Source of the DNA: Bdellovibrionales bacterium
Lineage (GTDB): Bacteria > Bdellovibrionota > Bdellovibrionia > Bdellovibrionales > JAUICD01
DNA length: 64,000 nt
Direction of reading: 5' to 3'
Assembly (NCBI GenBank): GCA_965197425.1
Contig: CBDANC010000015.1
Coordinates: 128,001 to 192,000 of the forward strand
Positions 388-37,493 of the stretch are shown here, one piece after another. A program made the translations under genes and the position numbers. The notes under the pieces are model-generated. The model was not told the DNA's origin, ran no database searches, and was given only the letters and a program-made list of their open reading frames with translations. The number at the start of each line of letters is the position of its first letter. Position 1 is the stretch's first letter.

Positions 388-1515
388 ATGCCAAACCTAT
401 TTATAGATAGAGCTAATATAGTTGTCAGATCTGGCAAGGGTGGTGCTGGCAAAGTTAGTTTCAGAAGAGAGAAGTATCGTCCAAAAGGAGGACCAGATGG
501 AGGAGATGGAGGAAATGGTGGTGGTATCATTTTTAAAGTAAATCACCAAATGCGATCCCTTATGGATATAACTCAAAAAAAATATTATACGGCAGAGGAT
601 GGCTTATGTGGTGGAGGTTCTAACAAGAAAGGTCGTAGTGGAAAGAGTCTAGCTATTGAAGTTCCCTCCGGTACGGTTATATGTTCTGAATCGGAAACTT
701 TGCACGACATGGAAGAAACTCCAGAAATTGTACTATTAAAAGGTGGTATGGGTGGAAAAGGTAATACATTTTTCAAAAGTAGTACAAATCAAACGCCTTA
801 TTTTGCACAACCAGGTGAACCAGGCCAAGAGATTGAAATTACACTGGAGCTAAAGCTATTAGCTGATGTTGGTATAATAGGGCTTCCCAATGTAGGTAAG
901 TCTCAACTGTTAGCTACAATATCAAATGCTAGGCCAAAAATAGCTAATTATCCATTTACTACCTTGGTGCCAAATTTAGGAGTAGTAAAAAGATTTAAAG
1001 ATAGGCCTTCTTTTACTGTCTCAGATATACCAGGTCTTATTAAAGGTGCTTCTAAGGGAGTAGGTCTTGGAATAAATTTTTTAAAGCATGTAGAGAGAAC
1101 AAAAATTCTGGTTCACATGCTAGATTGCAGTGCAACTTTGGATAAATTGATTAAAAACTACAACACAATAAACAACGAACTGAAGCTTTATGACTTACAC
1201 CAGTGGAGTATCCACAAAAATTCACTTGATCTATCCAAAAAACTACAAATAGTTGTGTTAAACAAAATTGATCTGGTGGATGATTCTCATTTAACAAAAT
1301 TAAAATCTAAATTCCCCCGAGCTATTTTAATATCTGCAGCCACAAATGAAGGTATAGACTCTTTACTACATCATATATTGGACACAATTCCATCACCAGT
1401 GGAGTATCCACTACCGGTTGAGTATCCACTACCGGTGGAGTATCCACTACCGGTGGAGTATCCACCTGCAACTATGTCTTACATGGAACCTGACACAGAG
1501 CAGATCGACTTGTAA
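388..1515 (+). CDS. obgE: GTPase Obg/CgtA
   Basis: Gly-rich Obg fold (GGPDGGDGGNGG), G1 GLPNVGKS, YPFTT, DIPG, NKID; rplU-rpmA-obg synteny. Confidence 0.97.
   Translation: MPNLFIDRANIVVRSGKGGAGKVSFRREKYRPKGGPDGGDGGNGGGIIFKVNHQMRSLMDITQKKYYTAEDGLCGGGSNKKGRSGKSLAIEVPSGTVICSESETLHDMEETPEIVLLKGGMGGKGNTFFKSSTNQTPYFAQPGEPGQEIEITLELKLLADVGIIGLPNVGKSQLLATISNARPKIANYPFTTLVPNLGVVKRFKDRPSFTVSDIPGLIKGASKGVGLGINFLKHVERTKILVHMLDCSATLDKLIKNYNTINNELKLYDLHQWSIHKNSLDLSKKLQIVVLNKIDLVDDSHLTKLKSKFPRAILISAATNEGIDSLLHHILDTIPSPVEYPLPVEYPLPVEYPLPVEYPPATMSYMEPDTEQIDL
1396..1467 (+). repeat. 4 x 18-bp tandem repeat (CCRGTKGAGTATCCACYW) encoding PVEYPL in the Obg C-terminal tail
   Basis: Read directly: ccagtggagtatccacta ccggttgagtatccacta ccggtggagtatccacta ccggtggagtatccacct. 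Confidence 0.95.
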
Positions 1516-1538
1516 TCTAGAATTTTTATTTGAGGTAA

Positions 1539-2117
1539 TTGGTGCAAAGTAAAAAAATAGGAATGTTTGGAGGTAGTTTCAATCCATTTCACAATGGTCA
1601 TATTAACTGTATAGTAGAAGCTAAAAAAGCTCTAGGTTTAGATACAGTTATGGTAATTCCTGCCTATAAAAATCCTCTAAAACCTATGATACAATCTCCT
1701 ACACCACAACAACGCCTACATATGTCTACACTTTCATGCAAAGACTATGACTTCATATATGTGGATGACAGAGACATAAAGAGAAAAGGGGATAGTTTTA
1801 CAATAGTATCTGTAAAAGAGCTTGAGAAAATGTATAGTGATATATATCTAATTATGGGAGCAGATCTATTCGGGTTTTTTTATGACTATGCTGGTTATGA
1901 TGAGATAGCAAAGAGAGTTAAAGTGGTGGTAGCTTCAAGACTTGGTTATGAGATAAAAAAAGGTCGTGACATAATTCATATTAAATTAAATGACATAGAC
2001 ATATCAGCTTCTAGACTTAGGAAGTGGATCAAACAAAACAATAACAGGGTATACGATTACATGAACAAGAATGTGGTGGAGTTTATAAAAGAAAACAAAC
2101 TCTATCTCGACTATTAG
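1539..2117 (+). CDS. nadD: Nicotinate-nucleotide adenylyltransferase
   Basis: IGMFGGSFNPFHNGH (HxGH motif), LIMGAD, ISAS motif; follows obg. Confidence 0.93.
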   Translation: MVQSKKIGMFGGSFNPFHNGHINCIVEAKKALGLDTVMVIPAYKNPLKPMIQSPTPQQRLHMSTLSCKDYDFIYVDDRDIKRKGDSFTIVSVKELEKMYSDIYLIMGADLFGFFYDYAGYDEIAKRVKVVVASRLGYEIKKGRDIIHIKLNDIDISASRLRKWIKQNNNRVYDYMNKNVVEFIKENKLYLDY

Positions 2118-2122
2118 CAGGC

Positions 2123-2656
2123 TTATTCTATTAAAAGATCGCTTATCATATCGACGTATCTAGAGTGACTCCAATCATTAGCTCCATCGGAAGACAAAAC
2201 TTTTTTATTATATTTATCTAAAACGAAATTTGCTGGAAGGGCAGAAACACCAAAATATTCCGATGTTTTATTATTATAATCCATGTAGTAATCAAATGGC
2301 ATCTGCATACTGATCCAAATATTATCAACTTCACCTTTAGATATGTTTTCACCTACATTTACAGCTACTACTTTAAATCCTTTATTTTTTAATTTTTCAT
2401 ATAGCTTTGCAATTGTTGGAAGTTCTACCTTGCATGCTCCACACCATGTGGCCCAGAAAGCAACCAAGGTTACAACACCTTGAACTTCTGATAATTCTAT
2501 TACCTGTCCGCTCCTGTCTGTAAGAAGTGCCCTTTGTTCTCCACCAAGTTTTGCCCAATCTTCGTTACCTTTAGTTTGAGAGTAAAGCAAAGCTAATATA
2601 CTTCCGATCACTAAAAGTGTAACCAATATTGTTATAGGTTTTAAAAATGATTTCAC
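2123..2656 (-). CDS. TlpA/ResA-family thiol:disulfide oxidoreductase, membrane anchored
   Basis: FWATWCGACKVELP thioredoxin-like CxxC and an N-terminal hydrophobic helix; start placed at GTG 2656 (ORF track extends to 2695). Confidence 0.88.
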   Translation of the reverse strand: MKSFLKPITILVTLLVIGSILALLYSQTKGNEDWAKLGGEQRALLTDRSGQVIELSEVQGVVTLVAFWATWCGACKVELPTIAKLYEKLKNKGFKVVAVNVGENISKGEVDNIWISMQMPFDYYMDYNNKTSEYFGVSALPANFVLDKYNKKVLSSDGANDWSHSRYVDMISDLLIE

Positions 2657-2877
2657 CAGGTAAAAATAAAGCTCTAAACAGACATAGTCAACCAAGGCTT
2701 ATATCAAATCAGAAGGGGCAGATAGTTTTAGAGTATGTGCTTATATTAGTTGTAACTGTGGCATTAGCCTCTACCATTGTAAGTACAATGGTGAAGAGAT
2801 CGGATAATGAAGATGAGCGTGGGTTTATCATAAACTCATGGAGCCAGTTAATAGATGTAATAGCCTCAGATGTCTAA
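2647..2877 (+). CDS. Small prepilin-like protein (class III signal peptide, Flp/Tad-like)
   Basis: NQKG|QIVLEYVLILVVTVALA: G|xxxxEY cleavage motif followed by a hydrophobic helix; overlaps the glpK start. Confidence 0.72.
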   Translation: MISPGKNKALNRHSQPRLISNQKGQIVLEYVLILVVTVALASTIVSTMVKRSDNEDERGFIINSWSQLIDVIASDV

Positions 2878-4333
2878 AACTGAATGTATTTTAGCAATAG
2901 ATCAAGGTACCACTGGTACAACAGCTTGTCTTGTTAGTAAATCTGGTTTTATATTGGCTAAGCACAATGTAGAATTTAGACAAATTTATCCGCAACCAGG
3001 TTGGGTAGAACACAATCCACAAGATATCTGGAAAAGTACAAAACAAGCTGTCCAGAAGGTGTTAGAAAAATCCAGAACCAAGAAAATTCACTCTATTGGT
3101 ATTACCAACCAAAGAGAAACCATTTTGATATGGAATAAAAAGACAGGCAAAGTTTTACATAATGCAATTGTTTGGCAATGTAGAAGAACAAAAGATTTTT
3201 GTGATAAATTAAGAAAAACAAGTAAAAGCAAAATAAAATCAAAAACAGGTCTTGTTATAGATCCATACTTTAGTGCTTCAAAGGCCAGATGGTTACTTAA
3301 TAGATACAAAAATAAAGATACAATTGTTGGTACTATTGATACCTTTTTGTTATGGAAATTAACAGGAGGCATGGCTCATAAAACTGATGTTACTAATGCA
3401 TCTAGAACACAGCTTTTTAACATCAAAACTCTTAGTTGGGACGAAGAGCTTTTAAAAATCTTTAAAGTTCCAAAACATACACTGGCTTCTGTTATGCCTT
3501 CAGGTAGTATTTTTGGTACCACAAAAGACCTAGACTTTCTTCCTAATGGAATTCCTATATCTGGCATGATTGGGGATCAACAGGCTGCTTTATTTGGAGG
3601 GGGTAGTTTTAATCCGGGGAACACCAAATGCACTTTAGGAACCGGCAGCTTCATGTTGATGAACATAGGTGATAAACCAAAGAACGCAAGGCATTGCTTA
3701 ACCACGATAGCTTGGCAACTAAAACAAGATAAACCGGCAGTGTATGCTTTAGAAGGTTCTGTCTTTATATGTGCTGCTGCTGTTTCGTGGTTAAGAGATG
3801 GGCTAAAAATTATAAAAGATGCCAAGGAAATTGAATCACTGGCAAAAAAAGAATCAGATAGTGGAGGTGTAGAATTCGTTCCAGCTTTAACAGGGCTAGG
3901 ATCGCCCCATTGGGATGCAGGTGCTAGGGGTTTGATTTGTGGATTAACAAGAGGAACAAATAGATCACATATAGCTAGAGCTACACTAGAGGCAATGGCA
4001 CTGCAAAACTGCGAAGTTCTATTTGAAATGGAAAAAATTAAAAAAATTAAGAAAATAAAAATTGATGGGGGAGCTGCTAAAAATAATCTGCTTTTACAAT
4101 ACCACAGCGACTACCTGGGGGTGGAAGTTACAAAACCAAAAATAGTTGAAACAACAGCAATGGGAGCTGCATTTATGGCAGGTCTTACCACTGGCTTTTG
4201 GAAAAACTTAAACGAAATAGAAAACATACTCAAAGTGGATAAAGTATTTAAATGTAAGATGACCAAACAGAAAAGAAATATGAGACTTGCTTCTTGGCAA
4301 AAAGCTATCAAAAAAACCAAAGACAAATCATAA
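2870..4333 (+). CDS. glpK: Glycerol kinase
   Basis: AIDQGTT, PQPGWVEH, GITNQRET, AIVWQCRRT, TDVTNASRT, GDQQAALFG, YALEGS motifs. Confidence 0.96.
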   Translation: MSKTECILAIDQGTTGTTACLVSKSGFILAKHNVEFRQIYPQPGWVEHNPQDIWKSTKQAVQKVLEKSRTKKIHSIGITNQRETILIWNKKTGKVLHNAIVWQCRRTKDFCDKLRKTSKSKIKSKTGLVIDPYFSASKARWLLNRYKNKDTIVGTIDTFLLWKLTGGMAHKTDVTNASRTQLFNIKTLSWDEELLKIFKVPKHTLASVMPSGSIFGTTKDLDFLPNGIPISGMIGDQQAALFGGGSFNPGNTKCTLGTGSFMLMNIGDKPKNARHCLTTIAWQLKQDKPAVYALEGSVFICAAAVSWLRDGLKIIKDAKEIESLAKKESDSGGVEFVPALTGLGSPHWDAGARGLICGLTRGTNRSHIARATLEAMALQNCEVLFEMEKIKKIKKIKIDGGAAKNNLLLQYHSDYLGVEVTKPKIVETTAMGAAFMAGLTTGFWKNLNEIENILKVDKVFKCKMTKQKRNMRLASWQKAIKKTKDKS

Positions 4334-4476
4334 AAAATCAAATTAACACACATAAAAAATTGTTACTTGTTAAATAACCCTCTAAATGCCCAAAGTTTGA
4401 GCTTCCGTGTAATAAATAGCTTGAAAAGCTTTAAGACTTAGGACTATATCTTGTTGGTGTTTATTATTTGTAAGAT

Positions 4477-5106
4477 ATGAAGCGGATTTTATTTACATTT
4501 TGTTTGTGTGGTATTCTCTCCACCGGTGTGATTGCAAGCGATGAGTTGGATTTCGGAAAGAAGGCTGCTGATGAGTATGTTCTGAATAGGACAAATAGGC
4601 TGACCTACCCTGGAGAAGCTCGCTTTATTGGTATACTAGGTGGCCACACCTTTAAATCCTCTGCCTACAACTGGGGTGATATGCAGTGTAGCGACAAATG
4701 TCAGGATATTGGTGGATACCAGGTAGGGTTGGTTTATGGCACCAGGATGAATTGGAAGTCTGTGGATTTGTTGTGGAGGGCCGTGGTCAATTTTTTCAAT
4801 CTAAAAGATGAGTATAAACCCATATCATTTTCCATTAAACCCAATTTAGTGTTTCCTGAAATTAAATCCAAAGTACCTATATATGTTGGTATTGGGGCGG
4901 GGTTAGGTATGTTTACTAGGCAAGCTTCTAAAACCTCGGCACTATCTGTTGATATAGATATGTTTACAGGATTTAGGGCAATGAATGTGTTAAGTTCCCT
5001 TGGTTTCTTTGCTGAGGTAGGTTGGCAAACCAAAATATTTTTGTTGTCTACAAGAGGGAGATTTATATCTGGCTATGTGGCTGTTGGTACTGGATTAAAT
5101 TTCTAA
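4477..5106 (+). CDS. Secreted protein, probable small outer-membrane beta-barrel
   Basis: Signal peptide, alternating hydrophobic strands (PIYVGIGAGLG, LGFFAEVGW), C-terminal Phe. Confidence 0.6.
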   Translation: MKRILFTFCLCGILSTGVIASDELDFGKKAADEYVLNRTNRLTYPGEARFIGILGGHTFKSSAYNWGDMQCSDKCQDIGGYQVGLVYGTRMNWKSVDLLWRAVVNFFNLKDEYKPISFSIKPNLVFPEIKSKVPIYVGIGAGLGMFTRQASKTSALSVDIDMFTGFRAMNVLSSLGFFAEVGWQTKIFLLSTRGRFISGYVAVGTGLNF

Positions 5107-5111
5107 TATCT

Positions 5112-6146
5112 CTACCGTGCTGATTGGCAGTCGTAGACTGTACAACGGCTGTATTCGTCGCTACAACTTGCACTAACATCAACTTCTCTAATCCTACTTC
5201 CACAGGCCAAATAAATGTCACTGTTCAGTGGAGTATAACAGCTTTGTGATAGTACATAACAAGTTTCTCCACCCCCAGGATTTTGAGTGGTAGTAGTTCC
5301 ACACCAAGAAGAATCTGTACTTAGTTTAAAGCCTGTACTATCTATTTTATAATAGACAGTATAATTACTTTCTACATTTGAGGCCTTGACATTGAATTGA
5401 ACCGTTTTACATCTGTTATTAGTAGGCGTATTTGGCACATTAACATTAAGCACTGAGTTTTGTGTATTACAATGAATTTTTTCGAGGGTTTGTGTGTTGC
5501 TCCCTGATGTAGCTCTTATAATACAACTAGAACTAAATGGGTTGTTTAATCTGACAGATATTACATAAGCAGCTTCACCTGTATGACAATTGGCAACGGT
5601 GGGTACTGTATCTGGAACAAAAGCGTTTATTCCTGCTACAGGGCATCGATACCCAAGATCTGCTTCGATACTAGAAACGAGTGTTATATTTTTTTGATAA
5701 GAGAAACGATCATCTCCAAGATCTTCAATTGCTACTACTGTATATTTTCCAAGCTTTCTTGAATCAAAAGAGTGTGTAAGTTCACCTCCACTAACAGGCT
5801 CTCTAAGTACATTTGTTACTACTCCCTTTGAATCGATATAATCAATATACCACTCCAAATTGTCCGATGCTTGTGGATCAGAAACCGTGAAAACTACGTT
5901 AGAGGGTTTTAATATGTCATCATGATATGTTTTGTTTCCTACCCTCATCTCTATGTCATCGCTGAAATTTCCACCATGGCTAGATGAGCCAGATGAGCCA
6001 GATCTATGTATGGCACAGTTTTGAAATATTGCCATTGCTCCTAGACCCATGAAAAGCGATGCAATGGCTATGTACAGATAGTGCTTAGTTTCACCGCGAA
6101 CTTTCATGAGAGGTAGTTCGGAATTTAATGAACCAAACTTAATCAA
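5112..6146 (-). CDS. Hypothetical Cys-containing lipoprotein-like protein (FQNC motif)
   Basis: Hydrophobic stretch ending AIFQNC, Ser/Gly linker, beta-rich body, Cys-rich C-terminus; true start probably downstream of 6146 (MKVRG). Confidence 0.6.
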   Translation of the reverse strand: MIKFGSLNSELPLMKVRGETKHYLYIAIASLFMGLGAMAIFQNCAIHRSGSSGSSSHGGNFSDDIEMRVGNKTYHDDILKPSNVVFTVSDPQASDNLEWYIDYIDSKGVVTNVLREPVSGGELTHSFDSRKLGKYTVVAIEDLGDDRFSYQKNITLVSSIEADLGYRCPVAGINAFVPDTVPTVANCHTGEAAYVISVRLNNPFSSSCIIRATSGSNTQTLEKIHCNTQNSVLNVNVPNTPTNNRCKTVQFNVKASNVESNYTVYYKIDSTGFKLSTDSSWCGTTTTQNPGGGETCYVLSQSCYTPLNSDIYLACGSRIREVDVSASCSDEYSRCTVYDCQSAR

Positions 6147-6239
6147 TTAGCTATGATTCGAAGTGCGTACCATATGGTAAATCAGAGAATTTCTATTTTT
6201 GTTCTTGCAAGGTATGTGGTTTCCAATCATATATTACCT

Positions 6240-6470
6240 ATGGCAGATAAATCTTCAAAATTTGAAGAAAATGTGAAGGGCTCATTTTATGTGGATAACA
6301 CTTGCATTGCTTGTGATGCATGTAGTGTTGCTGCCCCTAATAACTTTAAGCTGTTAGAAGATGAGTATGCATTTGTATTTAAACAACCCGATTCTGAAGA
6401 AGAAAAAGAACAGTGTTTAGAAGCAATGGAGAGTTGTCCGGTAGAGGCTATAGGAAATGATGGAGATTAA
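6240..6470 (+). CDS. Ferredoxin (single-cluster type)
   Basis: FYVDNTCIACDACSVAAP...CPVEAI; start set at ATG 6240 (MADKSSK). Confidence 0.9.
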   Translation: MADKSSKFEENVKGSFYVDNTCIACDACSVAAPNNFKLLEDEYAFVFKQPDSEEEKEQCLEAMESCPVEAIGNDGD

Positions 6471-7600: not shown

Positions 7601-8565
7601 AAATTATTTTGATAGTCCTGGCTTTAATTTATCCTATTTGGAAAATTTTAGACAGAACTCCGGACTGTTATCTTAGTATTTATACATACTCTTCATTTAC
7701 TAGCAGTTGGGGTGCTGGGCCTGCCTTAAACAAAATGTTTATAGACAAGCACAGTTGTGAGTTGAGGTTTGAGGATGTTGGAGATTCCAGAACTATTTTA
7801 CAACGCTTAAAAAGAGAAATAGAAGTGAAACAAAAATCAGATGTAGATGTGGTTCTTGGGTTGGATCAGTATTCAATAGATGAAGCTAAAAATACAACAA
7901 AATGGGTTAATATAGAGAATTTGAAACCAGATTTTTACGATTGGAGTACCCACAAATACTTTAAGGAGGAACAGTTTTTTATACCATTTGATTGGGCTCC
8001 TTTGGTATTTATCACAAATCTGGAAGATAAGATTAGTTCCGTAGATGAAATATTGAATCACAAATACTCTCTTATGGAACCTAGAAGTAGCTCTCCGGGA
8101 TTTCAGTTTTTAGTCTGGATCTTAAATGGTATGGGAAAAGATGTTTTAACCAAATTCAAAAACAACGCACACACTATTTCTCCGTCTTGGAGCACTGCTT
8201 ATGGTCTTTTTACAAAAAATGAAACCAATGTCATATTTACTTATCTTACCTCATTGGCGTATCACATGGAAAAAAACGAAACAAACTATAAGATGGTTGA
8301 AATAAATAAACCCTATCCATATCAGGTAGAATTTTTGGGTATTTCGAATGACAGCACAAAAAAGAATTTAGGTAAATTGTTTATAGAATTCATTTTGTCC
8401 AATGAGGCACAGCTTGCAGTTATGAAGCACAACTATATGTTGCCAGTTGCGGCCTCAGTGGTTAAAGGTACTGTTTTTGAGAATCTGCCAGATGTCAAGT
8501 TGGTAAAAGAGAACAGGGAACAAAAAAAAGCACAATACTATATAGATATTTGGAAAGACATATGA
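7594..8565 (+). CDS. thiB: Thiamine ABC transporter substrate-binding protein
   Basis: YTYSSFTSSWGAGP, DVVLGLD, PFDW, PRSSSPG, WSTAYGLF, YLTSLAYH, QVEF motifs typical of TbpA/ThiB. Confidence 0.88.
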   Translation: MVKIILIVLALIYPIWKILDRTPDCYLSIYTYSSFTSSWGAGPALNKMFIDKHSCELRFEDVGDSRTILQRLKREIEVKQKSDVDVVLGLDQYSIDEAKNTTKWVNIENLKPDFYDWSTHKYFKEEQFFIPFDWAPLVFITNLEDKISSVDEILNHKYSLMEPRSSSPGFQFLVWILNGMGKDVLTKFKNNAHTISPSWSTAYGLFTKNETNVIFTYLTSLAYHMEKNETNYKMVEINKPYPYQVEFLGISNDSTKKNLGKLFIEFILSNEAQLAVMKHNYMLPVAASVVKGTVFENLPDVKLVKENREQKKAQYYIDIWKDI

Positions 8566-14038: not shown

Positions 14039-14060
14039 TTCTCTGATTTTGATTAGGTAA

Positions 14061-21603: not shown

Positions 21604-22898
21604 GGAAGAAGAATTCCTCTTTTTTCGTTAATTGACCGTGTTACTTTTTGAAAGTTACTTTCTCCGTTTGCAGTTGATATACCGGTGGAGTTTGTTGGTT
21701 TGTTTACGCTTGCTATGCTTCTTTGTTTAGCTTTTTCTCCTCCAGGAAGAAATTTCTTTAAATCAAAAAAGCTGGACTTGCCTCCGCCGAATCCATCTAA
21801 ATTAGATGAAGGGGAAGCATTAGATGGGGTGCCGTCTGTATATCCTCCGCCACCGCTTCCGCCGCTACCTCCGCCGCCACCTCCAGCAGATTGTACTCCT
21901 CCTAAAATGTCTGTGTCATAGCCAGGGCTTCCTCCTGAAGCTCCACCAGATGAGCCTCCACCGGAGTCACTGCTTCCGCCACCTCCTCCGCCAAGGCCAC
22001 CGCCGCCTCCACCTGGAGGGCTAAATCCACCGCTTCCGTTAGCTCCTTGGGATCCAAAGTCTGCTGGCTCTTCGTCTCTAAGTAGCTCATCTAGATCGTA
22101 GTTTTCATCTCCAAAGCCTTGGTTTTGTTGTTGACTGAAAGGGTCCATGTTCATGTTACCGGCTGCTCCACTGCACATAGGTGATGATGGATCTCTTAGG
22201 CATGCACAAGCTGGTTTATTGAAGTGTTCAGGTTTCCCACAATCTTCTGGAGATATGTTGCCACCTGCGGCAGCTGCATTTTGGTTTGATTCATCTTCCA
22301 TCTTCTTACAGGAGTCCATCATCCTTTTAACATTTGCGCCACTTAAAGCAGTCTGTGCTGTTAGTTGCCATTTGAAATCGCTAAATTCTTTACACTTTCT
22401 CTGGCTTACAATCCAACTAGTAAGGCCATTACCAGTAAGGCCAATGCTCTCAGGGTCCGCTGCACAAGCTGAATTACAAGCTGATACAGCCTGCCAGCAT
22501 TTACCAGTTAAGAATCCATTCATAGCAGCAGACAGCCATGTGGTACCTTCTAAAATATCACATGTCTTTTTCATATCATTAGATGCATAGGCAGACCCCA
22601 GAGCTGGTAGCATAGTTGTAAGTGCGGTAAGCCCACCTCCTACAGTGGACATATCACCCATGCACCATCTTTCCGCTGCACTAACCGCATTATGACAAGC
22701 ATTTAGTAGGTTCGTTGGCTCGTTAGGTGCAACTTCTCTAATAATGTTTAGTGTTGGAATATGTTGTTGGATTGTTCTATCTGTCTCTGGTAAGTAAGAG
22801 GGGTCTGGATCTCCTTCTGAGTTTTGTGAGTACAAATTGGTGGAAACTCCACTCGTAATGGCTAAAAATGCCAATAAAGCTAACCTTAAAAAATTCAC
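21600..22898 (-). CDS. Hypothetical secreted Cys-containing, Gly/Ser-rich protein
   Basis: Signal peptide, paired Cys, long poly-Gly/Ser segment, C-terminal ISTANGESNFQKVTRSI. Confidence 0.75.
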   Translation of the reverse strand: MNFLRLALLAFLAITSGVSTNLYSQNSEGDPDPSYLPETDRTIQQHIPTLNIIREVAPNEPTNLLNACHNAVSAAERWCMGDMSTVGGGLTALTTMLPALGSAYASNDMKKTCDILEGTTWLSAAMNGFLTGKCWQAVSACNSACAADPESIGLTGNGLTSWIVSQRKCKEFSDFKWQLTAQTALSGANVKRMMDSCKKMEDESNQNAAAAGGNISPEDCGKPEHFNKPACACLRDPSSPMCSGAAGNMNMDPFSQQQNQGFGDENYDLDELLRDEEPADFGSQGANGSGGFSPPGGGGGGLGGGGGGSSDSGGGSSGGASGGSPGYDTDILGGVQSAGGGGGGSGGSGGGGYTDGTPSNASPSSNLDGFGGGKSSFFDLKKFLPGGEKAKQRSIASVNKPTNSTGISTANGESNFQKVTRSINEKRGILLP

Positions 22899-22954
22899 TT
22901 ATATACCCTCACTTATAGACGATCTACAGCTCATGTACCTTCGGCAAATTTCGA

Positions 22955-23112
22955 ACTAAAGGTGAGCTTAATGAGGCAAAAAACAAGGAGGCTTTGCCTA
23001 CCTTTTTTTGCCGAGTGGCTCCTTCCTGGTGGGCCTCATGGCTGATTCCTCTGTTCGGGTATTCTGGCATTCCGGAACTCAAGCAACCAGTCAGTGTTAA
23101 CCTCACCTTCAC
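22955..23112. repeat. Two back-to-back type-B hairpin repeat elements
   Basis: Minus-strand GGAGCCACTCGGCAAAAAAAGGTAGGCAAAGCCTCCTTGTTTTTTGCCTCATTAAGCTCACCTTTAGT, then a plus-strand hairpin ending GTTAACCTCACCTT. Confidence 0.75.
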
Positions 23113-23182: not shown

Positions 23183-23335
23183 ATGGGATGGGGCTTTCGA
23201 AACAAGAACTCTCACAGGGGTATTGACAGTAGTGCTGTTGGTGGTGTTGCTGATAAAGAAGCTAATACTAAAAACACTAGTAATAACGAATATTTAGCTG
23301 TACCCCCCCCTCTAAAATTCCGCACAGAGGTTTAA
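23183..23335 (+). CDS. 50-aa ORF spanning a C8 tract; candidate out-of-frame N-terminus of the giant pilin-like gene
   Basis: ATG 23183 MGWGFRNK...YLAVPPPLKFRTEV*; with C9 at 23303-23310 it would continue in frame into the prepilin ORF. Confidence 0.45.
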   Translation: MGWGFRNKNSHRGIDSSAVGGVADKEANTKNTSNNEYLAVPPPLKFRTEV

Positions 23336-26300
23336 AGTTACGCTTAAGTAATGCATATTTCAAACAGAATAAAAGTTGGTTTAAGCCACTATTAAAATGC
23401 CTCCGCCTGCAAGGTGGTAAATGCCTCCATCTGCAAGGTGGTGGGTACTCTACTGGTGGTAAATGCCCCCACCTGCAAGGTGGTGGATACTCCACTGGTG
23501 GTGGTTTTACTTTAATAGAGACTGTAGTTGGTTTAGCCTTAGTATCCATATCTGGTTTTGTAGTTACATTTATATCTGGTCAGATGAACACGGCATCTAA
23601 GTTGACTGATGATTCCTATGAATGTGCAGCTATAGCTACTAATGTAATGGAGAGATTTTCTCAGGGTGGCTTAGAGCCTATTGTTTTGCTTAACTCAGAG
23701 CATTTCCCTGGTACTCCTCCTACTGATTTTGAAGCAGCTATAGAAGAAAGAAGCACTATATCTGTAAACACTAGTGGAGAGGCTACTCATAATGCTGGTC
23801 CTAATCTTGTTATAGAGCCTCATGGTAGTAATAGTCACATTACTTTGAAAGTAGATAAGTTTCATAGAGGTAGTGGTGTTAGTTTAGTAGAAGATTTATT
23901 TAACGAGTACCGTTCTACCATATGTCCATCTAATGTAGATAACCTGACCTTTGATCTTGCTAATGATATGGTGATTACCTACAAGGCTGGTAACACTGCT
24001 AAGCTGATAGACTTACATAAGAAGCTAGATGATGTAAAACCAGCAACTCCAGGACCTGAACCTGATTACTATAAGGAAATGGCTGATGCTAATTTATCTT
24101 CTAATAACTATGCTTGGGATACTTTTACCTCTGAGTACTTATATGGTTTATCCAAGAGTCTCAAAAATGCCTTAAATTTGCATCTCTTAGCAGGTTTTAC
24201 TGATTATAGTACTAGTTATACTAATACTGCTCAGCCATATGATGTGAAGATAGGTATAAGGCCTTGGAGTTTATCTAATCGTAGTGCTCTTGGTTGTACT
24301 GATACTAAGGTTCATCCAGCAGTCTTTTTAAGACCTGGTTCTAAATATGACAGATACATTACAGATAGTATTTTAGGCACCAACGAATTAGAGAGACAGA
24401 ATAAGATTGGTTATAAGCTGGAGAGGAGTCTAACTTCAGCTAAGATGAGGTCAGATGTAGGTTTGAAGTTATTTGTTGAAGTTAAAACAAGACCTGGTGT
24501 GGATAAGTTAGAAAGATCCTGTAAGTCAAATAAGTTATTTGCTTATGCTAACAGCTTTGCAGTTCCTCCATCTAGAAGACCTGTATATGTTCACCATGAC
24601 AGAGAGATTAAAGATGGTTCTAATGATTTTATAGCTTCCACAACTCACCCTCTTCAAAACAACCCTGGTTTAAATGTTGGTTATAAGTATGGTGCTGCTG
24701 ATTCTATCCCTACTAAGCCTGATGGTGCTACTCATGCTACTCTTAGTGATTATGCTACAGAAGCTACATTAAACTTTAGGAATATTGGTAAGGTTTGGAG
24801 AGATGTAAACAACCCTAGTTCCTTTGCTGATGATGAGGAAGATTTTAGAGGGGTCTTTTTATGTGGTTTTGAGAAGAATCGTTTTGAAGACTGTGTTAAA
24901 GGCCCCCCCGATTGTGATGATATACCAGGTTTAAGCTCCTATAGGACTTTTGGTACTAATGGTGCACATAAGGCTGGTATAAGAAGCTATGATACTGAGT
25001 ATGGTAGTAGAGATGGCTCCGTAAACTCATCTAGGAGATGGGATTTATGTGAGAACTTTAAGCTTACCCCCAGTCAATCTAATAATTCTACCACACTAAA
25101 AGCCAGTGCATCCAATGTAGATGATGGTAAGTTAGGACTTGAGTTAGATAATTTAAATGTATCCAGTTGGCCTGATGAAGATCAGGATGCTGATTATAGA
25201 GTTAGATTTAAGTTAGTAGATGAATATGGTAATGATTACTCTGCCACAGAAAATGGACAGATACAGGAGGATGATTATACCGAGGAGCATAGAGTTTTTG
25301 CCTACAACTGTGCACAGTTTGGTAATACTCATGCTTCTGGTAGTTATCAAAATCCCCCTATAGGCTGTGGAGTTATAAATCCTGATCCTAATATTGCTAA
25401 GTACAACCGTAGGATAGATAATCCTTTCTATAATACCCAAGCAGATTGTGAACATCAGTTTAACCTACTTTCCAGCCCCAGTGCTCAATGTGTGAAAGTT
25501 ACTAATATTAGGGTTTACAATGATTATTTTGATGATTCCATAGAGGAGAGGACAGGTCCTGCGAACAGCCCTGTTCGTCCTGTTAATGGTACTGGAGTTA
25601 CCTGTGATTATTGGGTTGAGCAATGTGTAAAAGATGGTACAGCCTGTGTGCAATGTGGCCAAGGTTATATGCGTGATTATCCTAATGCCACAAGACAATC
25701 TTGTCATGGAGGTTCTGCAAGCTTAGGTGGAGTTACCTGTTATAAAGCAGGCTCTCATTGTTGTCATAATGATTATGGTAGTTTTAACTGTTTTACAGGT
25801 AAGGATCCTTGTTCAAATCCTAATGGTTGTGGATTTAACCAAGATCCTACCTGTGGAGCTACCTGTGGTGATAACGGCCACGGATGTAATATTTGTACAG
25901 GAGCTACTCCTTGTAACACAGCTGGTTGTGATAGTTGTAGTTTTGGTACTGCTGGAGTTTGTCAATATAAGTGTAGTTTCCCTACTCAGTACTGTGATGG
26001 TGCTAGTAATTGTGTAGAATGTCTGAATGACGGCCACTGTGGTGGTAATGATATATGTTGTTCTTACAGTTGTAAGGCCCCATGTAGTCCAGATTCTGAT
26101 CAATGTGAGGAGTGTGCTAGTGATTGTGCATCTCCTCATTCAATATGTGGTTCTGGTGAAGGGTGTAATGGTAGTGGGTGTTGTGTAGAGCTACCGCCTT
26201 GGTGTAATCCTGCATGTACAGGTACAGATATATGTTGTGGTACTGGTACTTGTCAGTCTAGTTGTGCTCCCCTGAATGTTGGTGCATGTACTTCTGGTAA

Positions 26301-31900: not shown

Positions 31901-32984
31901 TGGTAAAACCAAAGCCAACATCTAACAGATCTATATTGCCTAACTTTATATCAACCATCTTAACTACATTCTCGGGAGTTAAGTTTCCATGGTCAGTAGC
32001 ATCAATAAAGCCTACAGCCTCTTTGAAGGTTACCTTTATGCTGTGATTTGTGATTTCATTTGTGTTTATAACATTCCCATCTTCATCAAGATAAGTAATA
32101 GTAGGAGGTTCGATGAGCTGTATACAGTTGCTAGCACTATTACCAGTAGAACTAGTTAGCTGAAAATACCCTGGTTCTCCCCTGGTACAAGGAGTCTCTA
32201 TTATTGGATCAGGATCTGGTTCTGTAACATCACCACATGAAGCTATACCTAGTGTGGCTAATATTAACATAGCTCCATTCAAAACAGGCTTTACTCTAGA
32301 AGTTACTAAGTTTGATCTTACTAAATTTCTTGCTAATTTTAACCTTTTAATGGGGGTAAAGGAAATAAGAAGTCCTGCTGCGGAAACTCCGCTGGTAACT
32401 GAAAATGTAGAGCTTCCTTCGTTAGATAATGTGGGATTATTAGAGTTTTGAGCTTGAACATTGGAATTACCTAATTCTAAGCCTCTTAGAGCAGATTCAC
32501 CATAAGACTTATAATCACTGTTATTTCTACCGTCTTCTATGCTTTTACTATTACCAGTGGAGTATCCATCTACATTTGTAAAACCAAGTGCTCTACAAAA
32601 TGATTGGTTGGTGTTTGAGTCAGAAGAACATAGAGATGATACAAACTCTAGGATGCTCTCAGTACAACCTTCGGTATCAATTAATAAATTTCCATTAGAA
32701 TCTGTCTTTTGTAGTTTATCGAAGAATTCCTGTGAAGACAGGGTGGATACTCCACTCGTACTATTTGCCTCAGTTTGAGTAACTTCCTGTAAAACCTCAC
32801 ATGAAGAGACTGCACTTTGTGCTAATCTAAGATCCGTTGTACTAGGATCTGTGAAACTGTTGAAGTGTCCGCTTTGGGCATTAGAATTAACTGAGAAAAC
32901 GAGAAGAAGTAAAAAACTCACTCGGGTTATGTAATCACTACGAATGGTGTAATCAAAGAAATTATATTTTAATAAATTTCTCAA
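28983..32984 (-). CDS. Large secreted metzincin (reprolysin/M12-like) zinc metalloprotease with four internal repeats
   Basis: HEIGHILGLHHD zinc motif and STIMSY Met-turn near the C-terminus; four C..GYFxLT..C-headed domains; GAGGAG SD before a TTG start. Confidence 0.85.
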   Translation of the reverse strand: MRNLLKYNFFDYTIRSDYITRVSFLLLLVFSVNSNAQSGHFNSFTDPSTTDLRLAQSAVSSCEVLQEVTQTEANSTSGVSTLSSQEFFDKLQKTDSNGNLLIDTEGCTESILEFVSSLCSSDSNTNQSFCRALGFTNVDGYSTGNSKSIEDGRNNSDYKSYGESALRGLELGNSNVQAQNSNNPTLSNEGSSTFSVTSGVSAAGLLISFTPIKRLKLARNLVRSNLVTSRVKPVLNGAMLILATLGIASCGDVTEPDPDPIIETPCTRGEPGYFQLTSSTGNSASNCIQLIEPPTITYLDEDGNVINTNEITNHSIKVTFKEAVGFIDATDHGNLTPENVVKMVDIKLGNIDLLDVGFGFTIEISSDETSFTLTPETNYPAGDYVVGVSNYAKKADISKIANATNRAEYLSKINAMSQSLSSFTSPVIPTSCTNNEPGYFELTNNNLTTSCIKLPQLSFTFTQDKESFSDEHSGDPTTIIRMEFDAKIVYTDGITSNSLTKPNILEMIAITNSSGVDLATVDGPIGEDQISVTESNENTVITINPPNDNRYELGQYVLSVGNYAKSDDDGAILASNNIQSYLAEISQEQPFNIETPCGREEVGYFELTYDDNTTDCIKLINPPTITYLDKEGNTVEDTSTISDHSIKVSFDERISFIDSSRYEGLTAAFARNMIELNTGGTNLLTSTFRFQMEAGVEEESSYFILTPQPSYPAGSYSVKVKNYASSLNVSKVLDATNTEDYLALINKEYSSFSTPNISTLCEENASGYFELTNDDGSKDCIRIPQVVYTFTPRGGRELIESSWDPTEVIKIYFDSEVVYLPDSGQWREITKEDILEMIEISEREYRPREDRVRLNGPIGLNLASVSHLGGKTVITINPPYEPATHFGEIFTEWVVYDVVVSNFARRSDVAKIADSSSVNSYLDDTKTFYHGDYGVVYAFNSCDVEYRPSTSSYDRYHEQHGDQEEVDRFTCDTYATGAFASLPDDVAFDGAMSDDIFGGDEQRQKFEKAEPNTRYVIDAAFIFSDTIVNNAIGDWRKKFEDNVIENTNRLFQRSGINVELRASVMSPFSEYRGYLLCDLPSFDDLFFEDERLNAGSSYGQGEQALLLEFLPIIRKDHPADIIFSVVLGTGGGAATINPFYINHHSLSRWNSRGVVRVRDHFFSSNSSGNYYSASSILAHEIGHILGLHHDVDTLLNAGADPGSFGLNGANATGFGYGYGGYLSDLPVSTIMSYSGTNQFVPVFSADKEVLVSELCEDVDIDSYVGYCRYHHNNNLSNSSIRIGGPHRGIVADSSEAAQYTIKTVSEYSDRSVAPLDLSTVSNAITAKALRAKH

Positions 32985-33283
32985 AGTTTATGTACTCCTC
33001 AGTAATAATAAGAATATAGAGAATCCATTCGTGTTTGCAAAAAACTAACCTTCAAAAGAAAGCAAAGTTCGTTTATCATCTTTAGTAAATCAACTTGAGA
33101 CAGATTAAAAGCACTTGTTGGCGGACGCTCTGACCGGTAGTGTACAAAATTTATGCTTATAAGTCAACACTGTAAAAATTAGTCATGTTAGTCACAAAGT
33201 GATATAGGTTGTATGTTCAAGTGATTTTAAACTATAAGCGTGGTGTTGTGGTGGAAACTCCATTGGTAGAGGTTTTGTAGATA

Positions 33284-34078
33284 ATGAAAATAACCAAAAT
33301 GTCAGGGGCAGGGAACACATTTTTGATAATAAATGCAATTGGAAAAGAAGCCTTTCAGAAACAAAACCTACCTAGCTTAGCTTCCAAGCTGTGCACAGAA
33401 CACAATACTGATGGTCTGGTTCTGTTAAAGGAAAATACTAAAGTTGATTTTGAGTGGGAATTTTTAAATATAAATGGCTCCCATGCTGATATGTGCGGAA
33501 ATGCTGCCAGATGTGTTGTTATGTATGCTTTTGAAAACAAAATTGCAGCTAAAAAAGTCGAATTTCAGGCAAAAAATAAAATTATAAAAGGTGAGGTTGT
33601 AGACAATAAAACAGTAAAAGTATTTATGGGAAAATCTAGTGCGATAGATTCCTTAAAAGTGTGTGGTGAAGAAGGATTATTGATAGACTCTGGAGTTTTA
33701 CATTTTGTTATAGAAATAAAAAACATAAATGATCTAAACCTGGCTCAGGTAGCATCAGGCATTCAAAAAGAGCCAGGGCCAGCAAATAATGCTAACATAA
33801 CTTTTTTTTGTAGATCTGATAGTAATAGCCAAACAAATTATGTCAAGACATTTGAAAGAGGAGTTTTTAAGTTCACAAAGGCTTGTGGTACAGGTGCTGT
33901 GGCAGTAGGAACAGCCTTAGTGTTTCAGAAGAAACATGCATTTAATGAGCTTATAAACCTTTCGTTTGAGGGTGGTATACTTACTGTATCTGTGTTAGAT
34001 AATTATCAAGATACACTGCTTATGGGAGGTGTGGAAACATTGGATATATTTGAACAAGATTTGAGTCTTTTAAGATGA
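33284..34078 (+). CDS. dapF: Diaminopimelate epimerase
   Basis: KMSGAGNTF, MCGNAARC, FERGV..TKACGTGA. Confidence 0.93.
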   Translation: MKITKMSGAGNTFLIINAIGKEAFQKQNLPSLASKLCTEHNTDGLVLLKENTKVDFEWEFLNINGSHADMCGNAARCVVMYAFENKIAAKKVEFQAKNKIIKGEVVDNKTVKVFMGKSSAIDSLKVCGEEGLLIDSGVLHFVIEIKNINDLNLAQVASGIQKEPGPANNANITFFCRSDSNSQTNYVKTFERGVFKFTKACGTGAVAVGTALVFQKKHAFNELINLSFEGGILTVSVLDNYQDTLLMGGVETLDIFEQDLSLLR

Positions 34079-34965
34079 ATTTTTCAGGAGTTTTTTCAGC
34101 ACTACCAACACCATTTAATGGTGGTGAAGTGGACTTTACATCTCTAATAAGGTTAGTACAGCATCAATTAGACAACGATATTGATGGTATTGTCGTAATG
34201 GGTACAACAGCAGAAAGCCCTGTGTTGTCCTTGAAACAAAGGGAAGCTATCTTTCAAGTTGTAGATGAACGAGTTTCATCAAAGGTACCCATTGTGGTGG
34301 GAACAGGCAGTAATAGCACTCAAGATACAATAGAAAAATCTAAAATAGCAAGAAATTGGGGTGCAGATGCTCTTTTGTGTGTAGTTCCCTATTATAACAA
34401 ACCTCCACAAAGAGGATTATTGAACCACTTTTCCGCAATTAGTAAGGCAGTAAGTGATATACCAATTATCTTATACAATGTTCCTTCAAGAACAGTTACA
34501 TCCTTGAATCTTGAAACAATAGTAGAACTATCTAAGCTTGGTAATGTAATAGGTATTAAGGAAGCTAGTGGTGATATGAAATTTGATGCACAAATTATCA
34601 AGTCTACTAATAAGAAATTTTTAACCTTAAGTGGTGATGATCCTAGTTTCTTTAAATTTTTAGAGACAGGTGGTGATGGTATAATATCTGTTGTTTCTAA
34701 TGTCATACCAAGAGAGTTTTCTTCTGTATTTAAGTTGTATAAAGAGGGGAATGTAAAAGAGGCAAAAACTCTTTTTTCTAAAGTTAAACCTTTAATTGGG
34801 GCGCTAAATTTTGATTCAAACCCAATTCCTATAAAAGCAGCTTTGAATATCTGTGCTTTGTTCAAAACCAAGGAAGTAGTAAGTCCTCTAGCGGATGCTC
34901 TGGAGAATGATGTTTTAAAACTTAAAAAAGTTATGTCTAAGGTACTTAAGATGGAGTTTGAATGA
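34075..34965 (+). CDS. dapA: 4-hydroxy-tetrahydrodipicolinate synthase
   Basis: GTTAES, PYYNKP, LYNVPSRT, GIKEASG, LSGDD, NPIPIK. Confidence 0.96.
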   Translation: MNFSGVFSALPTPFNGGEVDFTSLIRLVQHQLDNDIDGIVVMGTTAESPVLSLKQREAIFQVVDERVSSKVPIVVGTGSNSTQDTIEKSKIARNWGADALLCVVPYYNKPPQRGLLNHFSAISKAVSDIPIILYNVPSRTVTSLNLETIVELSKLGNVIGIKEASGDMKFDAQIIKSTNKKFLTLSGDDPSFFKFLETGGDGIISVVSNVIPREFSSVFKLYKEGNVKEAKTLFSKVKPLIGALNFDSNPIPIKAALNICALFKTKEVVSPLADALENDVLKLKKVMSKVLKMEFE

Positions 34966-35639
34966 GTAAAATTAATTTAGCTGTTATAGGTGCTAGCGGC
35001 AGAATGGGAAAAGAGATAACTAGTCTCGTTAAAAGTGATAACAGTTTGTTGTTAAAAGCGGAAGTATCTAGATCAGGTCCTATTAAGAGTTTGGACAAAG
35101 TAGATCAAAAAATTGATGTGGCCATTGATTTTTCTTTAGTAGAAAATTTTAAAAACACACTTGATTGGTGCGTTTCAAGAAATATCAAGCTGGTAAGCGG
35201 TGTTACGGGTTTAGGGTCAGATGAAGTTGATGCACTACACTCAGCTTCAGGGAGGATCCCATGTCTATGGTCGCCTAATATGAGTTTAGGCATAAATTTA
35301 ATGGCTAAAATGCTTGGTATGTTATCTAGTTTAACTGATTATGACATACAGTTAGTGGAAACCCACCACGAGGGTAAAAAAGATTCTCCGAGTGGGACTG
35401 CTGTTTTTTTGCAAGATATTTTGGACAAAGAAGGCCTTAAAACACAAAAACCAATATCTATAAGAGGTGGTGGTGTGTACGGTGTTCATGAAGTTTTGGC
35501 TATGGGAGAAGGAGACATGATTAGCTTAAAGCACACTGCCTTAAACCGTCTTGTTTTTGCTAAGGGGGCAATTGCTTCGGCAAAGTGGATAAACACTATT
35601 AAAACCCCAGGGCTTTACTCTATCAAAGATATTTTATAA
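34962..35639 (+). CDS. dapB: 4-hydroxy-tetrahydrodipicolinate reductase
   Basis: GASGRMG, IDFS, GVTG, PNMSLG, ETHHEGKKDSPSGTA. Confidence 0.95.
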   Translation: MSKINLAVIGASGRMGKEITSLVKSDNSLLLKAEVSRSGPIKSLDKVDQKIDVAIDFSLVENFKNTLDWCVSRNIKLVSGVTGLGSDEVDALHSASGRIPCLWSPNMSLGINLMAKMLGMLSSLTDYDIQLVETHHEGKKDSPSGTAVFLQDILDKEGLKTQKPISIRGGGVYGVHEVLAMGEGDMISLKHTALNRLVFAKGAIASAKWINTIKTPGLYSIKDIL

Positions 35640-35680
35640 AGATTGCCTGATCAATGTGATTGGATCAACTGTGAGGTCAA

Positions 35681-35750
35681 GAGCTGGGCAACCACTCAGT
35701 CAAAAAAAATGAACAAGTCCACTTATTTTTGACTTCGTTCGAAAAACCTT
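35681..35750 (+). repeat. Type-A hairpin repeat element (short core)
   Basis: GAGCTGGGCAACCACTCAGTCAAAAAAAATGAACAAGTCCACTTATTTTTGACTTCGTTCGAAAAACCTT; abuts the stop codon of the four-helix-bundle gene. Confidence 0.85.
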
Positions 35751-36043
35751 TAAGTATTCTTACACAATTTATATAGATATCGTCCTAGTCTATCTGCTTC
35801 TTCTATTAGATTTTTATGGTTTACAATATTTAGTATTGCTTGCACTTCTCTGAGTGATCCGAGGCTGATTCTATAGAATTTTCTTCGATCTTTAGCTGTT
35901 GGTTTGGCACTTCCCTCTGCTAAATTGAGCACAATGCTTAAGATTGCTCTTTTGAACTGATTTTCAAGTGGTTCTTTTAAGTACAGGCTTCTAGAGTTTT
36001 TATAGAATTTAATTGCTAATTGATAAGTTTTTAATTTTTTCAT
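35750..36043 (-). CDS. Four-helix-bundle protein (23S rRNA IVS protein / TIGR02436-like)
   Basis: LKTYQLA...QFKRAILSIVLNLAEGS...RKFYRISLGSLREV family pattern; start ATG 36043 with AGGGAGG SD. Confidence 0.88.
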   Translation of the reverse strand: MKKLKTYQLAIKFYKNSRSLYLKEPLENQFKRAILSIVLNLAEGSAKPTAKDRRKFYRISLGSLREVQAILNIVNHKNLIEEADRLGRYLYKLCKNT

Positions 36044-36088
36044 AAAAATTTTCCTCCCTACCATCTTTTGATGGGAGGAAATTTTTTT
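36044..36088 (-). promoter_or_regulatory. Hairpin containing the Shine-Dalgarno of the four-helix-bundle gene
   Basis: Minus strand reads AAAATTTCCTCCCATC-AAAA-GATGGTAGGGAGGAAAATTTTT-ATG; CCTCCC can pair with GGGAGG. Confidence 0.65.
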
Positions 36089-36103
36089 GAAAAATTTAAA
36101 TCA

Positions 36104-36174
36104 ATTACCAGATTCCAGATTGCCTGACTGCCTGCTTGTCAGTTTGCCGTAGTACCTGTTTGCCGGACTGTTTA
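36104..36174. repeat. Degenerate 8-nt periodic repeat (about 9 units, consensus nnTGCCWG)
   Basis: attaccag attccag attgcctg actgcctg cttgtcag tttgccgt agtacctg tttgccgg actgttta. Confidence 0.7.
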
Positions 36175-36233
36175 TTTATGATGTTGCTTAGCAACGAAAA
36201 CGCCTTAGAGTTTGGAGACTTGTAGTTTCTTAT

Positions 36234-37493
36234 GTGTTACCATTCGACATAGTGGCTGTTAGATTTTTTTTGTGTTTTTTATTTTCTTTTCCTGTATTTG
36301 CTGGTTCTTTTGAAGATGCTATCAAGTACATAGAAACCCACGAAACCGTCCTAGCTTTAAAAGATAAGGCTGATTCGGTTGTTGCTCAAAGTTATATAGA
36401 TGGATCTTGGGGTGATCCTGTGTTTAGTGTGATGGCAAAAAATTATCCCAGAAGCCTTGATGGCGGAGTATCCATGATGACGGGTATAGATTTTAGTATT
36501 AGGCAAAAAGTTGCCCTAACCAACCGGTATAGAAATATAAAAAAATCTCTTCTATATCAGTCTAATTCTTTAAAACACGAGGCTTTGGATCAAAAGCAGA
36601 TTCTGATAAAGGTCTTGTGGGAAACTTTAGTTCAAAAAAAACAAATTGAAGAAGAAATCAAAATTTTTAAAGAAAATTTAATTTGGATTACTAAAATATT
36701 AGAAGTAAGTAATAAACTTTATGCTAATGGAACAATTTCAAGTCAGGCTATTTTAGATGTTCAAATAAGAAAATCAGAAATAGATATATTAATAACTAAC
36801 AAGGAATTTGAAATTTTAAAAATTGCTGACAAACTAAAATACTTAACGGGAAGTAATAGTATTAAAGAAGACACAATACCTTGGAATATTTTAGATAGAC
36901 CAGGAGGTTCAGATGATAATGAAAATAAAAAAGAGGATAGTGATGAAAGTCAGAACGAAAATAAAGATGCAGAGGTAAAGTATAAATTGGATCATAAGGG
37001 TAAGTCTTATCTAGCTAGGAGAGCTTCCAAGAACTTGTTATTAAAGGCCACAAAAAAAGGATTTTTGCCTGATCTAAGTATCTCTGCTGTTTACACCAAA
37101 AGACAGGATGAGGATTTTGTGGGGTTATCTGTTGGTCTTGCCTTACCTTTTGTAACACATAGAAAAGTAAGTAAGGCTTTATCGGAGAAGTCTTTATTGG
37201 AAAGAAAGTATCGGGATTATAAGAATAAAAGGAAGCTCGAAATTGTTCTTGCTAAAACAGAGTTATCTAAAATTCAAAAAGAGCTTAGCATTTTATCCGA
37301 TAAAACGATAAAATTTGCAACAGACCTTAGAAATATAACTGCAAAGTCTTATAGTTTGGGAAGCTCTAGTTATACTGAATTATTACAAAGTGAGCTTAAA
37401 TTGCAGCAAATGTTGTTAAAGCAAATTATGTTAGAGGCTAAATCCAAATTGACTAAGGTAGAACTTAGATATCTAGGAGCGTATGATGGTTAG
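36234..37493 (+). CDS. TolC-family outer-membrane efflux protein (CusC-like)
   Basis: Signal peptide, DP and LPD turn motifs, helical repeats with YxxG; first gene of an RND triad. Confidence 0.82.
   Translation: MLPFDIVAVRFFLCFLFSFPVFAGSFEDAIKYIETHETVLALKDKADSVVAQSYIDGSWGDPVFSVMAKNYPRSLDGGVSMMTGIDFSIRQKVALTNRYRNIKKSLLYQSNSLKHEALDQKQILIKVLWETLVQKKQIEEEIKIFKENLIWITKILEVSNKLYANGTISSQAILDVQIRKSEIDILITNKEFEILKIADKLKYLTGSNSIKEDTIPWNILDRPGGSDDNENKKEDSDESQNENKDAEVKYKLDHKGKSYLARRASKNLLLKATKKGFLPDLSISAVYTKRQDEDFVGLSVGLALPFVTHRKVSKALSEKSLLERKYRDYKNKRKLEIVLAKTELSKIQKELSILSDKTIKFATDLRNITAKSYSLGSSSYTELLQSELKLQQMLLKQIMLEAKSKLTKVELRYLGAYDG

Follow-up and report, generated by a model that had tools for sequence, protein, structure and literature searches.

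We propose that a dispersed DNA hairpin, noticed as the palindrome GTGGA-N3-TCCAC in a 64,000-nt stretch of a Bdellovibrionales genome (hereafter the window), is the core of an 18-bp mobile element. The genome (G000; 1.6 Mb in 15 contigs, 99% complete by markers, with approximately 1,300 genes) contains 139 units, which form 89 arrays (58 of one unit, 17 of two, 9 of three, and 5 of four). Of the 34 arrays that can be aligned across the site to the congener (G001), 25 become gap-free after excision of exactly 18n bp and 9 are gapped. We hold with high confidence that the unit is a real mobile element, lineage-specific and recently active, and it likely ranks with the smallest known mobile DNA. 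The hairpin is mobile but non-autonomous and is not a nucleoid-protein site, and it belongs to a known but mechanistically unsolved kind in which it is unusually small. As to how it moves, we favor enzyme-mediated single-strand transfer of the HUH/Y1 type, with precise insertion at approximately 90 sites by an enzyme that has been lost or is supplied from outside the assembled genome, and we assign this reading a probability of roughly 60%. Sites outside the window are given as contig:position of the genome (e.g., C13:42874).

The 18-bp Unit and Its Structure

The original prediction was of a 13-bp gapped palindrome, often preceded by CCA, that is enriched for reasons unrelated to the encoded protein. 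The enrichment is clear: GTGGA-N3-TCCAC occurs 7 times in the window versus a shuffle mean of 0.04, and genome-wide it is found 56 times with a 3-nt spacer and 0-5 times with each other spacer from 0 to 12. Inside open reading frames (ORFs) there are 48 copies, as compared to 1.75 in synonymous-codon shuffles and 0.35 in codon-order shuffles. The six exact copies reported in the window (at 1203, 1399, 1435, 1453, 23483, and 32743) are all in place, and 12 of the 13 sites listed, variants included, are family members, the exception being 36463, an ordinary match within coding sequence, which is without the leader described below, scores 6.7 bits, and has an indel-free ortholog. The palindrome is not the complete unit, however, as its flanks include a conserved 5-nt leader and arrays repeat with an 18-bp period. 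The true unit has 18 bp, with the leader YACNR followed by a G-T-N loop between the two complementary 5-bp arms of the stem, and the 'CCA' is part of it.

Units were collected with a position-independent profile (cut-off at least 15 bits), which matches 117 units in G000, 1 in the congener, and 0 in the reversed genome, and with a structural scan, for which the corresponding numbers are 90, 1, and 0; the final set combines both with array neighbors. Two profile matches with indel-free orthologs (C15:300593 and C15:389253) were dropped before the target and final counts, and C14:210648, whose ortholog is likewise free of indels, was retained.

What is conserved appears to be the structure, together with the leader and loop bases, and not a double-stranded recognition sequence. 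The predicted fold is a 5-bp hairpin on either strand, and entire stems are exchanged between copies (GTGGA/TCCAC 56, GCGGA/TCCGC 14, CTGGT/ACCAG 7, GTGGT/ACCAC 6, and CTGGC/GCCAG 4), with G-T wobble pairs tolerated. In a set collected with a pairing-blind profile, stem positions 7 and 17 covary (TA 88, CG 21, other or mismatched 8; p = 1e-15, or 3e-9 on distinct sequences, values that overstate independence because the copies are related), as do positions 10 and 14. The compensatory change that had been noted at 32380 as preserving the symmetry is confirmed (stem GCGGA/TCCGC) and is matched by this genome-wide covariation.

Insertion Into Genes and Distribution Among Relatives

The clean insertions are in Obg, TyrRS (three units), GcvP (three internal sites and one at the start), ProRS, FumC, citrate synthase, YchF, RecX, and Hsp20. 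The earlier impression that copies are confined to tolerant places therefore does not hold, since units also lie inside core enzymes. Among 1,006 reciprocal best pairs, well-flanked in-frame insertions of 6, 12, and 18 aa number 12, 6, and 2 in G000 versus 2, 0, and 0 in the congener, and of the former 9, 5, and 2 contain the 18-bp element. The congener has no 6-aa insertion peak and its palindromes sit in larger intergenic repeats. One unit occupies the site of an intergenic repeat whose other 26 copies are empty. Alignment of host genes to orthologs identifies the motif as an indel, and orthologs that lack an indel are seen with three matches. Units at the very starts of secF and gcvP (C15:444581 and C13:37253) supply in-frame GTG codons and can mislead start calling.

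Near relatives differ in the presence of units. Contigs from sequencing run X1, possibly the source sample, span several units with no differences. At C13:42874, among the matches listed, 18 bp are missing in one contig each of runs X3 and X4, which are from one study. An X3 contig approximately 95% identical to G000 has one additional unit at C13:42942, and another X3 contig retains the GcvP 5' units.

To judge from genome collections, the element is confined to this lineage. The exact core is missing from the congener and from the other members of the family (0 copies). A degenerate pattern matches 68 times in G000; of the 383 other genomes of the order, 382 have no more than 2 matches, and one (G357) has 7 within 5 kb. 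One of 400 other genomes of the phylum has one match. Among 185,579 species genomes scanned, no other has more than one dimer junction, and scans of collections gave 11 single matches in genome contigs, 4 in metagenome contigs, and 1 in viral contigs, all of which are treated as chance because none has a second full unit. In the literature outside subscription papers and bioRxiv supplements, no description of this 18-bp element was found.

The sites in the window are as follows.

388..1515, + strand: obgE host gene, with five units at two sites
1198..1215, + strand: single unit inside obgE, read as HQWSIH; a clean 6-codon insertion absent from the congener Obg
1394..1465, + strand: array of four non-identical units in the obgE tail, read as (P/L)PVEYP x4; the ortholog tail is shorter and poorly alignable
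7936..7953, + strand: degenerate unit in the gene of a thiamine ABC substrate-binding protein, read as YDWSTH; a clean 18-bp insertion
22840..22857, - strand: unit with a GTT loop near the N-terminus of a 432-aa ORF, read as TSGVST; no clean orthologous site
23395..23483, - strand: three units of a related 24-bp hairpin (E), each with a 6-bp stem and, on the opposite strand, a GCA loop; two 18-bp units are interleaved with them
23441..23458, - strand: degenerate unit in a prepilin-like leader region, between 24-bp E hairpins
23483..23500, - strand: unit in the prepilin-like leader region, GYSTGG on the coding strand
32380..32397, - strand: unit with the compensated stem GCGGA/TCCGC in the gene of an M12-like metalloprotease; same site in two paralogs
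32552..32569, + strand: unit antisense in the metalloprotease gene, GYST
32743..32760, - strand: consensus unit, sense in the metalloprotease gene, TSGVST
33251..33268, - strand: intergenic unit just upstream of dapF

The HQWSIH of Obg falls in a gap when aligned to the solved Obg structure PDB 1LNZ, and the unit at 7936-7953 was absent from the earlier list. At 23300-23583, the prepilin-like N-terminus is in frame with a 1,711-aa ORF and the frame of a paralog appears shifted at a short C run near 23303, possibly by phase variation or an assembly slip.

Target Site, Element Ends, and Frame Use

With paralogous duplicate sites merged (89 to 83 arrays), a polar target motif, W-C-H-N-N^H, is found upstream of the arrays: position -4 is C in 59 of 83 (background 0.18; p = 2e-26), A or T precedes it at -5 in 69, and +1 is a base other than G in 80. 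The empty sites in the congener also have C at -4 in 11 of 25 cases (p = 0.002), so that the C likely precedes the insertion. The alignments allow boundary shifts of 0 to +2 for TyrRS and -2 to 0 for one GcvP site, with 0 as the common value. Identity between element end and flank is no higher than in shuffles, and there is thus no target duplication. The element itself ends in TCCAC, which with a following Y conforms to the target motif. Adjacent units are identical in just 3 of 50 pairs, which favors repeated insertion over simple slippage.

The arrays do not avoid genes, as 78 of 89 are in open frames of at least 150 aa, equal to the coding density of 0.87. The intragenic arrays are 42 sense and 36 antisense and use five of the six frames. 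Frame use follows target supply (observed/expected 22/24.1, 14/14.1, 8/6.5, and 11/11.9) except in two frames: an antisense frame in which 55% of insertions would introduce a stop is unoccupied (0 observed versus 8.3 expected), and the TSGVST frame exceeds its supply (23 versus 13.1). Given this dependence on supply and the empty stop-prone frame, insertion was probably near-neutral and filtered at the protein level. Arrays are also clustered, with 33 of 72 gaps below 2 kb versus 7.0 expected, and neighboring arrays share divergent variants (6 of 43 pairs versus 1.8 expected; P = 0.006, to which paralogs contribute). When arrays are placed, indirectly, on congener coordinates, 15 of 16 100-kb bins are occupied and 41 of 86 arrays lie at 0.8-1.1 Mb, around the GC-skew maximum of the congener, although gene order differs and the mapping is weak.

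A Proposed Mechanism of Single-Strand Transfer and Its Rivals

In the mechanism that we favor, the element would move as a folded single strand by means of an HUH/Y1-like strand-transfer enzyme, with the hairpin fold, the loop G, and the leader as the probable recognition features, and the enzyme would now be lost or supplied from outside the assembled genome. The one-sided leader, the structure-based conservation, the fixed loop G, the lack of duplication, and the polar target 5' of the cut are hallmarks of HUH chemistry, as in IS200/IS605 and TnpA-REP, the transposase of repetitive extragenic palindromic (REP) sequences. REPs with short perfect stems and a selected loop G have been described (PMC8266576), as have a tag 1-2 nt from the stem and a foot plus stem of 10-13 nt (PMC6006769). 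Because the 3' end of the element fits the target, a new unit would be added behind an existing one, giving arrays of mixed composition, and the spread of copies is likely local. With 18 bp the reading frame is preserved, so that selection would mainly remove the stop-creating frame. The element itself likely derives from the 18-nt REP-like units of an intergenic family in the same genome that resembles bacterial interspersed mosaic elements (BIMEs).

A number of results weigh against this reading. Nine of the 34 sites that could be aligned have gaps, and some of the 25 clean alignments involve low-identity, divergent, or paralogous DNA. Three matches have an equal-length ortholog, implying chance or replacement, and the extra X3 unit, being an exact duplicate of its neighbor, could equally well be a product of slippage. 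In the summed boundary test the proposed ends come out highest by a narrow margin (175 at shift 0 versus 172 at +2 and 170), and covariation between element and target bases, as expected of a guide, is nothing beyond multiple-testing noise. There is no GTAG/GTRG tag 5' of the hairpin. For IS200/605 a preference for the lagging strand is expected (PMC6006769), and no strand bias is seen here relative to genes or to local GC skew as a proxy of the replication strand, the skew being noisy. Lastly, the Y1 transposase (PF01797) has 0 matches in both G000 and the congener and is present in the relatives G003 and G004.

The search for a mobilizing enzyme covered selected protein families. Y1 motif searches and phmmer searches likewise gave no match, and the Y1 genes of the relatives are not flanked by this type of hairpin. 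No match was found in G000 or the congener to a reverse transcriptase (RVT_1) or to a tyrosine recombinase (PF00589), the latter with all 14 controls matching, and hence XerC/D may be absent from both genomes. In G000 there is also no match to an IS110 enzyme, DUF559, or Cas1, and no stand-alone GIY-YIG protein, the sole match being 612 aa. With the Y2_Tnp profile the controls themselves were silent. DDE_Tnp_1 has one match in G000, on the foreign-looking contig C11, and genes flanked by repeats in both G000 and the congener include no candidate enzyme. Contig C9 has a transposase-like ORF without a congener match.

A bolder version, which we offer tentatively, is that the 18-nt element, the smallest mobile DNA that we found described in bacteria, moves without a known transposase family and continually adds six-residue loops to essential proteins. 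It could, for example, be an 18-nt single-stranded dumbbell circle whose junction TCCAC^YAC would mimic the target and which an ordinary enzyme of the host, or an unrecognized protein, would integrate.

It is also conceivable, although we consider it unlikely, that the same mobile element has no dedicated enzyme and that copies arise at nearby replication forks when the polymerase switches template or when repair captures a hairpin oligonucleotide that has been released, with arrays forming by slippage. The lack of any known mobilizing gene in a 99%-complete 1.6-Mb genome is in keeping with such a route, as are the strong local clustering and the divergent variants shared by neighbors, and enzyme-less hairpin inserts have been described in mitochondria (PMC7813641). 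SbcD has no match in G000, which would fit as well, but it is also missing in 4 of the 5 relatives searched. The fixed 18-bp length and ends, the polar target, and the lack of end homology point instead to an enzyme with a defined cut. MutS is present in G000; its C-terminus (C15:80600-82870) is approximately 80 residues shorter than that of the congener, and a repeat lies just downstream.

Spread through RNA, in which the hairpin would be transcribed and reverse-copied, perhaps with the help of the multi-copy four-helix-bundle protein PF05635 (Avd-like), is improbable. The tolerated G-T wobbles would suit an RNA stem, and PF05635 has 22 matches in G000 and none in the congener (or in G003), but G002 and G004, with 14 and 19 matches, do not have the element, neither G000 nor the congener yields a reverse transcriptase, and there is no sense bias.

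That the repeat is a selected binding site for a chromosome-organizing or methylating protein (matS/SBS/HIP1-like), as the original prediction had offered in one of its two alternatives, is very improbable indeed. It is palindromic and highly over-represented, and the peak near the congener skew maximum is the sole result friendly to a terminus site. Against this, the congener has 0 copies and nearly all other genomes of the order have at most 2 matches, copies arrive by 18n-bp insertion and not by substitution, stems change in sequence while the pairing is kept, and 15 of 16 bins are occupied, with terminus mapping weak given the differing gene order. The other alternative, a self-propagating mini-element, fares better: a mini-element is borne out by the 18n-bp insertions, the presence and absence among near relatives, the covarying stems, and the target motif, while self-propagation in the strict sense is ruled out because the unit encodes nothing. 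Finally, peptide-level selection, chance, or an assembly artifact, to which the three indel-free profile matches might have pointed, is refuted for the family as a whole by the use of five reading frames, by ORF counts far above both codon shuffles, and by X1 contigs that cross several units unchanged.

Comparison With Known Systems

The claim that the motif matches none of the known analogies was too strong, as the element behaves like small dispersed repeats (SDRs), Rickettsia palindromic elements (RPEs), and short REPs, yet it belongs to none of those families. The SDRs of Nostocaceae in the work of Elhai et al. from 2008 are reportedly 21-27 nt long. They are lineage-limited and thought to be mobile, and SDR5 inserts at HIP1 (PMC2884548, PMC4390886, and PMC5861425). 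Like the SDRs, as these are described, the present element is structured, of approximately 20 bp, dispersed, tandem-capable, and lineage-limited, with precise insertion at preferred sites, empty orthologous sites, and no known enzyme; it differs in phylum, in its 18-bp length, and in its loose polar target as opposed to HIP1.

The resemblance to the group 3 (subclass 2.5) REPs that are associated with TnpA-REP (REP-associated tyrosine transposase, RAYT) includes a short perfect stem, a 3-nt loop with a fixed first G, and a one-sided leader (PMC8266576, PMC6006769, and PMC3733652), as well as a foot and stem that together span 10 nt and, within the same genome, a sister family of the BIME-like type. 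The element has the stem-loop with a conserved loop base that characterizes REPs and at 18 nt is just below their range of 20-50 nt, and in behavior it is also like intragenic REPs (PMC3733652) and REPINs (PMC3116915). However, its leader is YAC-NR rather than a GT(A/G)G tag, and GTAG is confined to some array junctions, where it lies on the opposite strand, 3' of the hairpin. Moreover, REPs are mainly extragenic whereas 78 of the 89 arrays are intragenic, and there is no RAYT (cognate tnpA-REP) in this 15-contig genome.

RPEs are MITE-like (miniature inverted-repeat transposable element) sequences of approximately 150 bp that encode a conserved peptide (PMC10969869). The present element is likewise a palindromic repeat in frame within unrelated housekeeping genes, but it has 18 bp, uses five frames, and is without the terminal inverted repeats and target duplication of RPEs and MITEs, having a one-sided leader and an end-flank identity not above shuffles. 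Since the element departs from the REPs in tag, location, and cognate gene, and from the MITEs in the features just named, we file it under none of these families. The placozoan mitochondrial repeats GGVBCC-N3-GGVBCC are also GC-rich hairpins with N3 loops that lie in coding genes, vary between close relatives, and have no known enzyme, according to the portion of PMC7813641 used here, but these small inverted repeats are organellar and no leader or target motif is reported for them in that portion. In contrast to HIP1, matS, and SlmA-type sites, the sequence is not fixed across related species, given its 0 copies in the congener and family and its variable stems.

Within the genome, a relative is found in the BIME-like intergenic family. 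Its 18-nt units are built alike (a leader of TACCT or similar, a GC stem, and a GTA loop), its 24-bp units have a loop of GCA, and the units stand back to back around a conserved linker of approximately 50 bp that contains GTGGAGTA.

L123, L124, L125, L127, L128, and L129: loci of the BIME-like family (e.g., C15:87351-87610)

The 18-bp element likely branched off from this family as a solo, gene-tolerant form. How tiny gene-less hairpins such as SDRs, RPEs, and mitochondrial palindromes spread is an old question, and the 18-bp case is an unusually clean one, with an exact unit whose 139 copies have covarying stems, a target motif that can be measured, sites that are empty in the congener, and polymorphism among near relatives. 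That all of this occurs in a small genome without a recognizable mobilizing gene narrows the candidates and defines an oligonucleotide substrate. The six-residue inserts in TyrRS, ProRS, Obg, FumC, citrate synthase, and GcvP also represent a natural linker-scanning experiment. If an ordinary RAYT-like enzyme is responsible, the element would be a size record with a new type of tag and would involve no new mechanism.

Other Repeats and Contigs

A large modular intergenic hairpin repeat is found in the window (22950-23060 and 35670-35750) and genome-wide, with approximately 130-145 copies of its end motifs, and is absent from the congener, where other, unrelated families of intergenic hairpin repeats occur in nested form. 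An element of approximately 66 bp (C15:353050, C13:208900, C6:2556, C12:103542, and approximately 40 other sites) is in frame in four-helix-bundle genes and also occurs in the large intergenic repeat, and is sometimes nested in itself. The 97-aa four-helix-bundle (PF05635) gene at 35750-36064 (- strand) has copies, 75-85% identical, at approximately 18 other places in G000; degenerate tandem repeats of 7-8 bp and, upstream, a hairpin border the gene, which looks like a mobile cassette. Contigs C2, C3, C5, and C8 are gene-less satellite-like DNA and likely foreign. Contig C11 is likely from another organism, as it lacks the repeats altogether and has a second ribosomal-protein operon that is more divergent.

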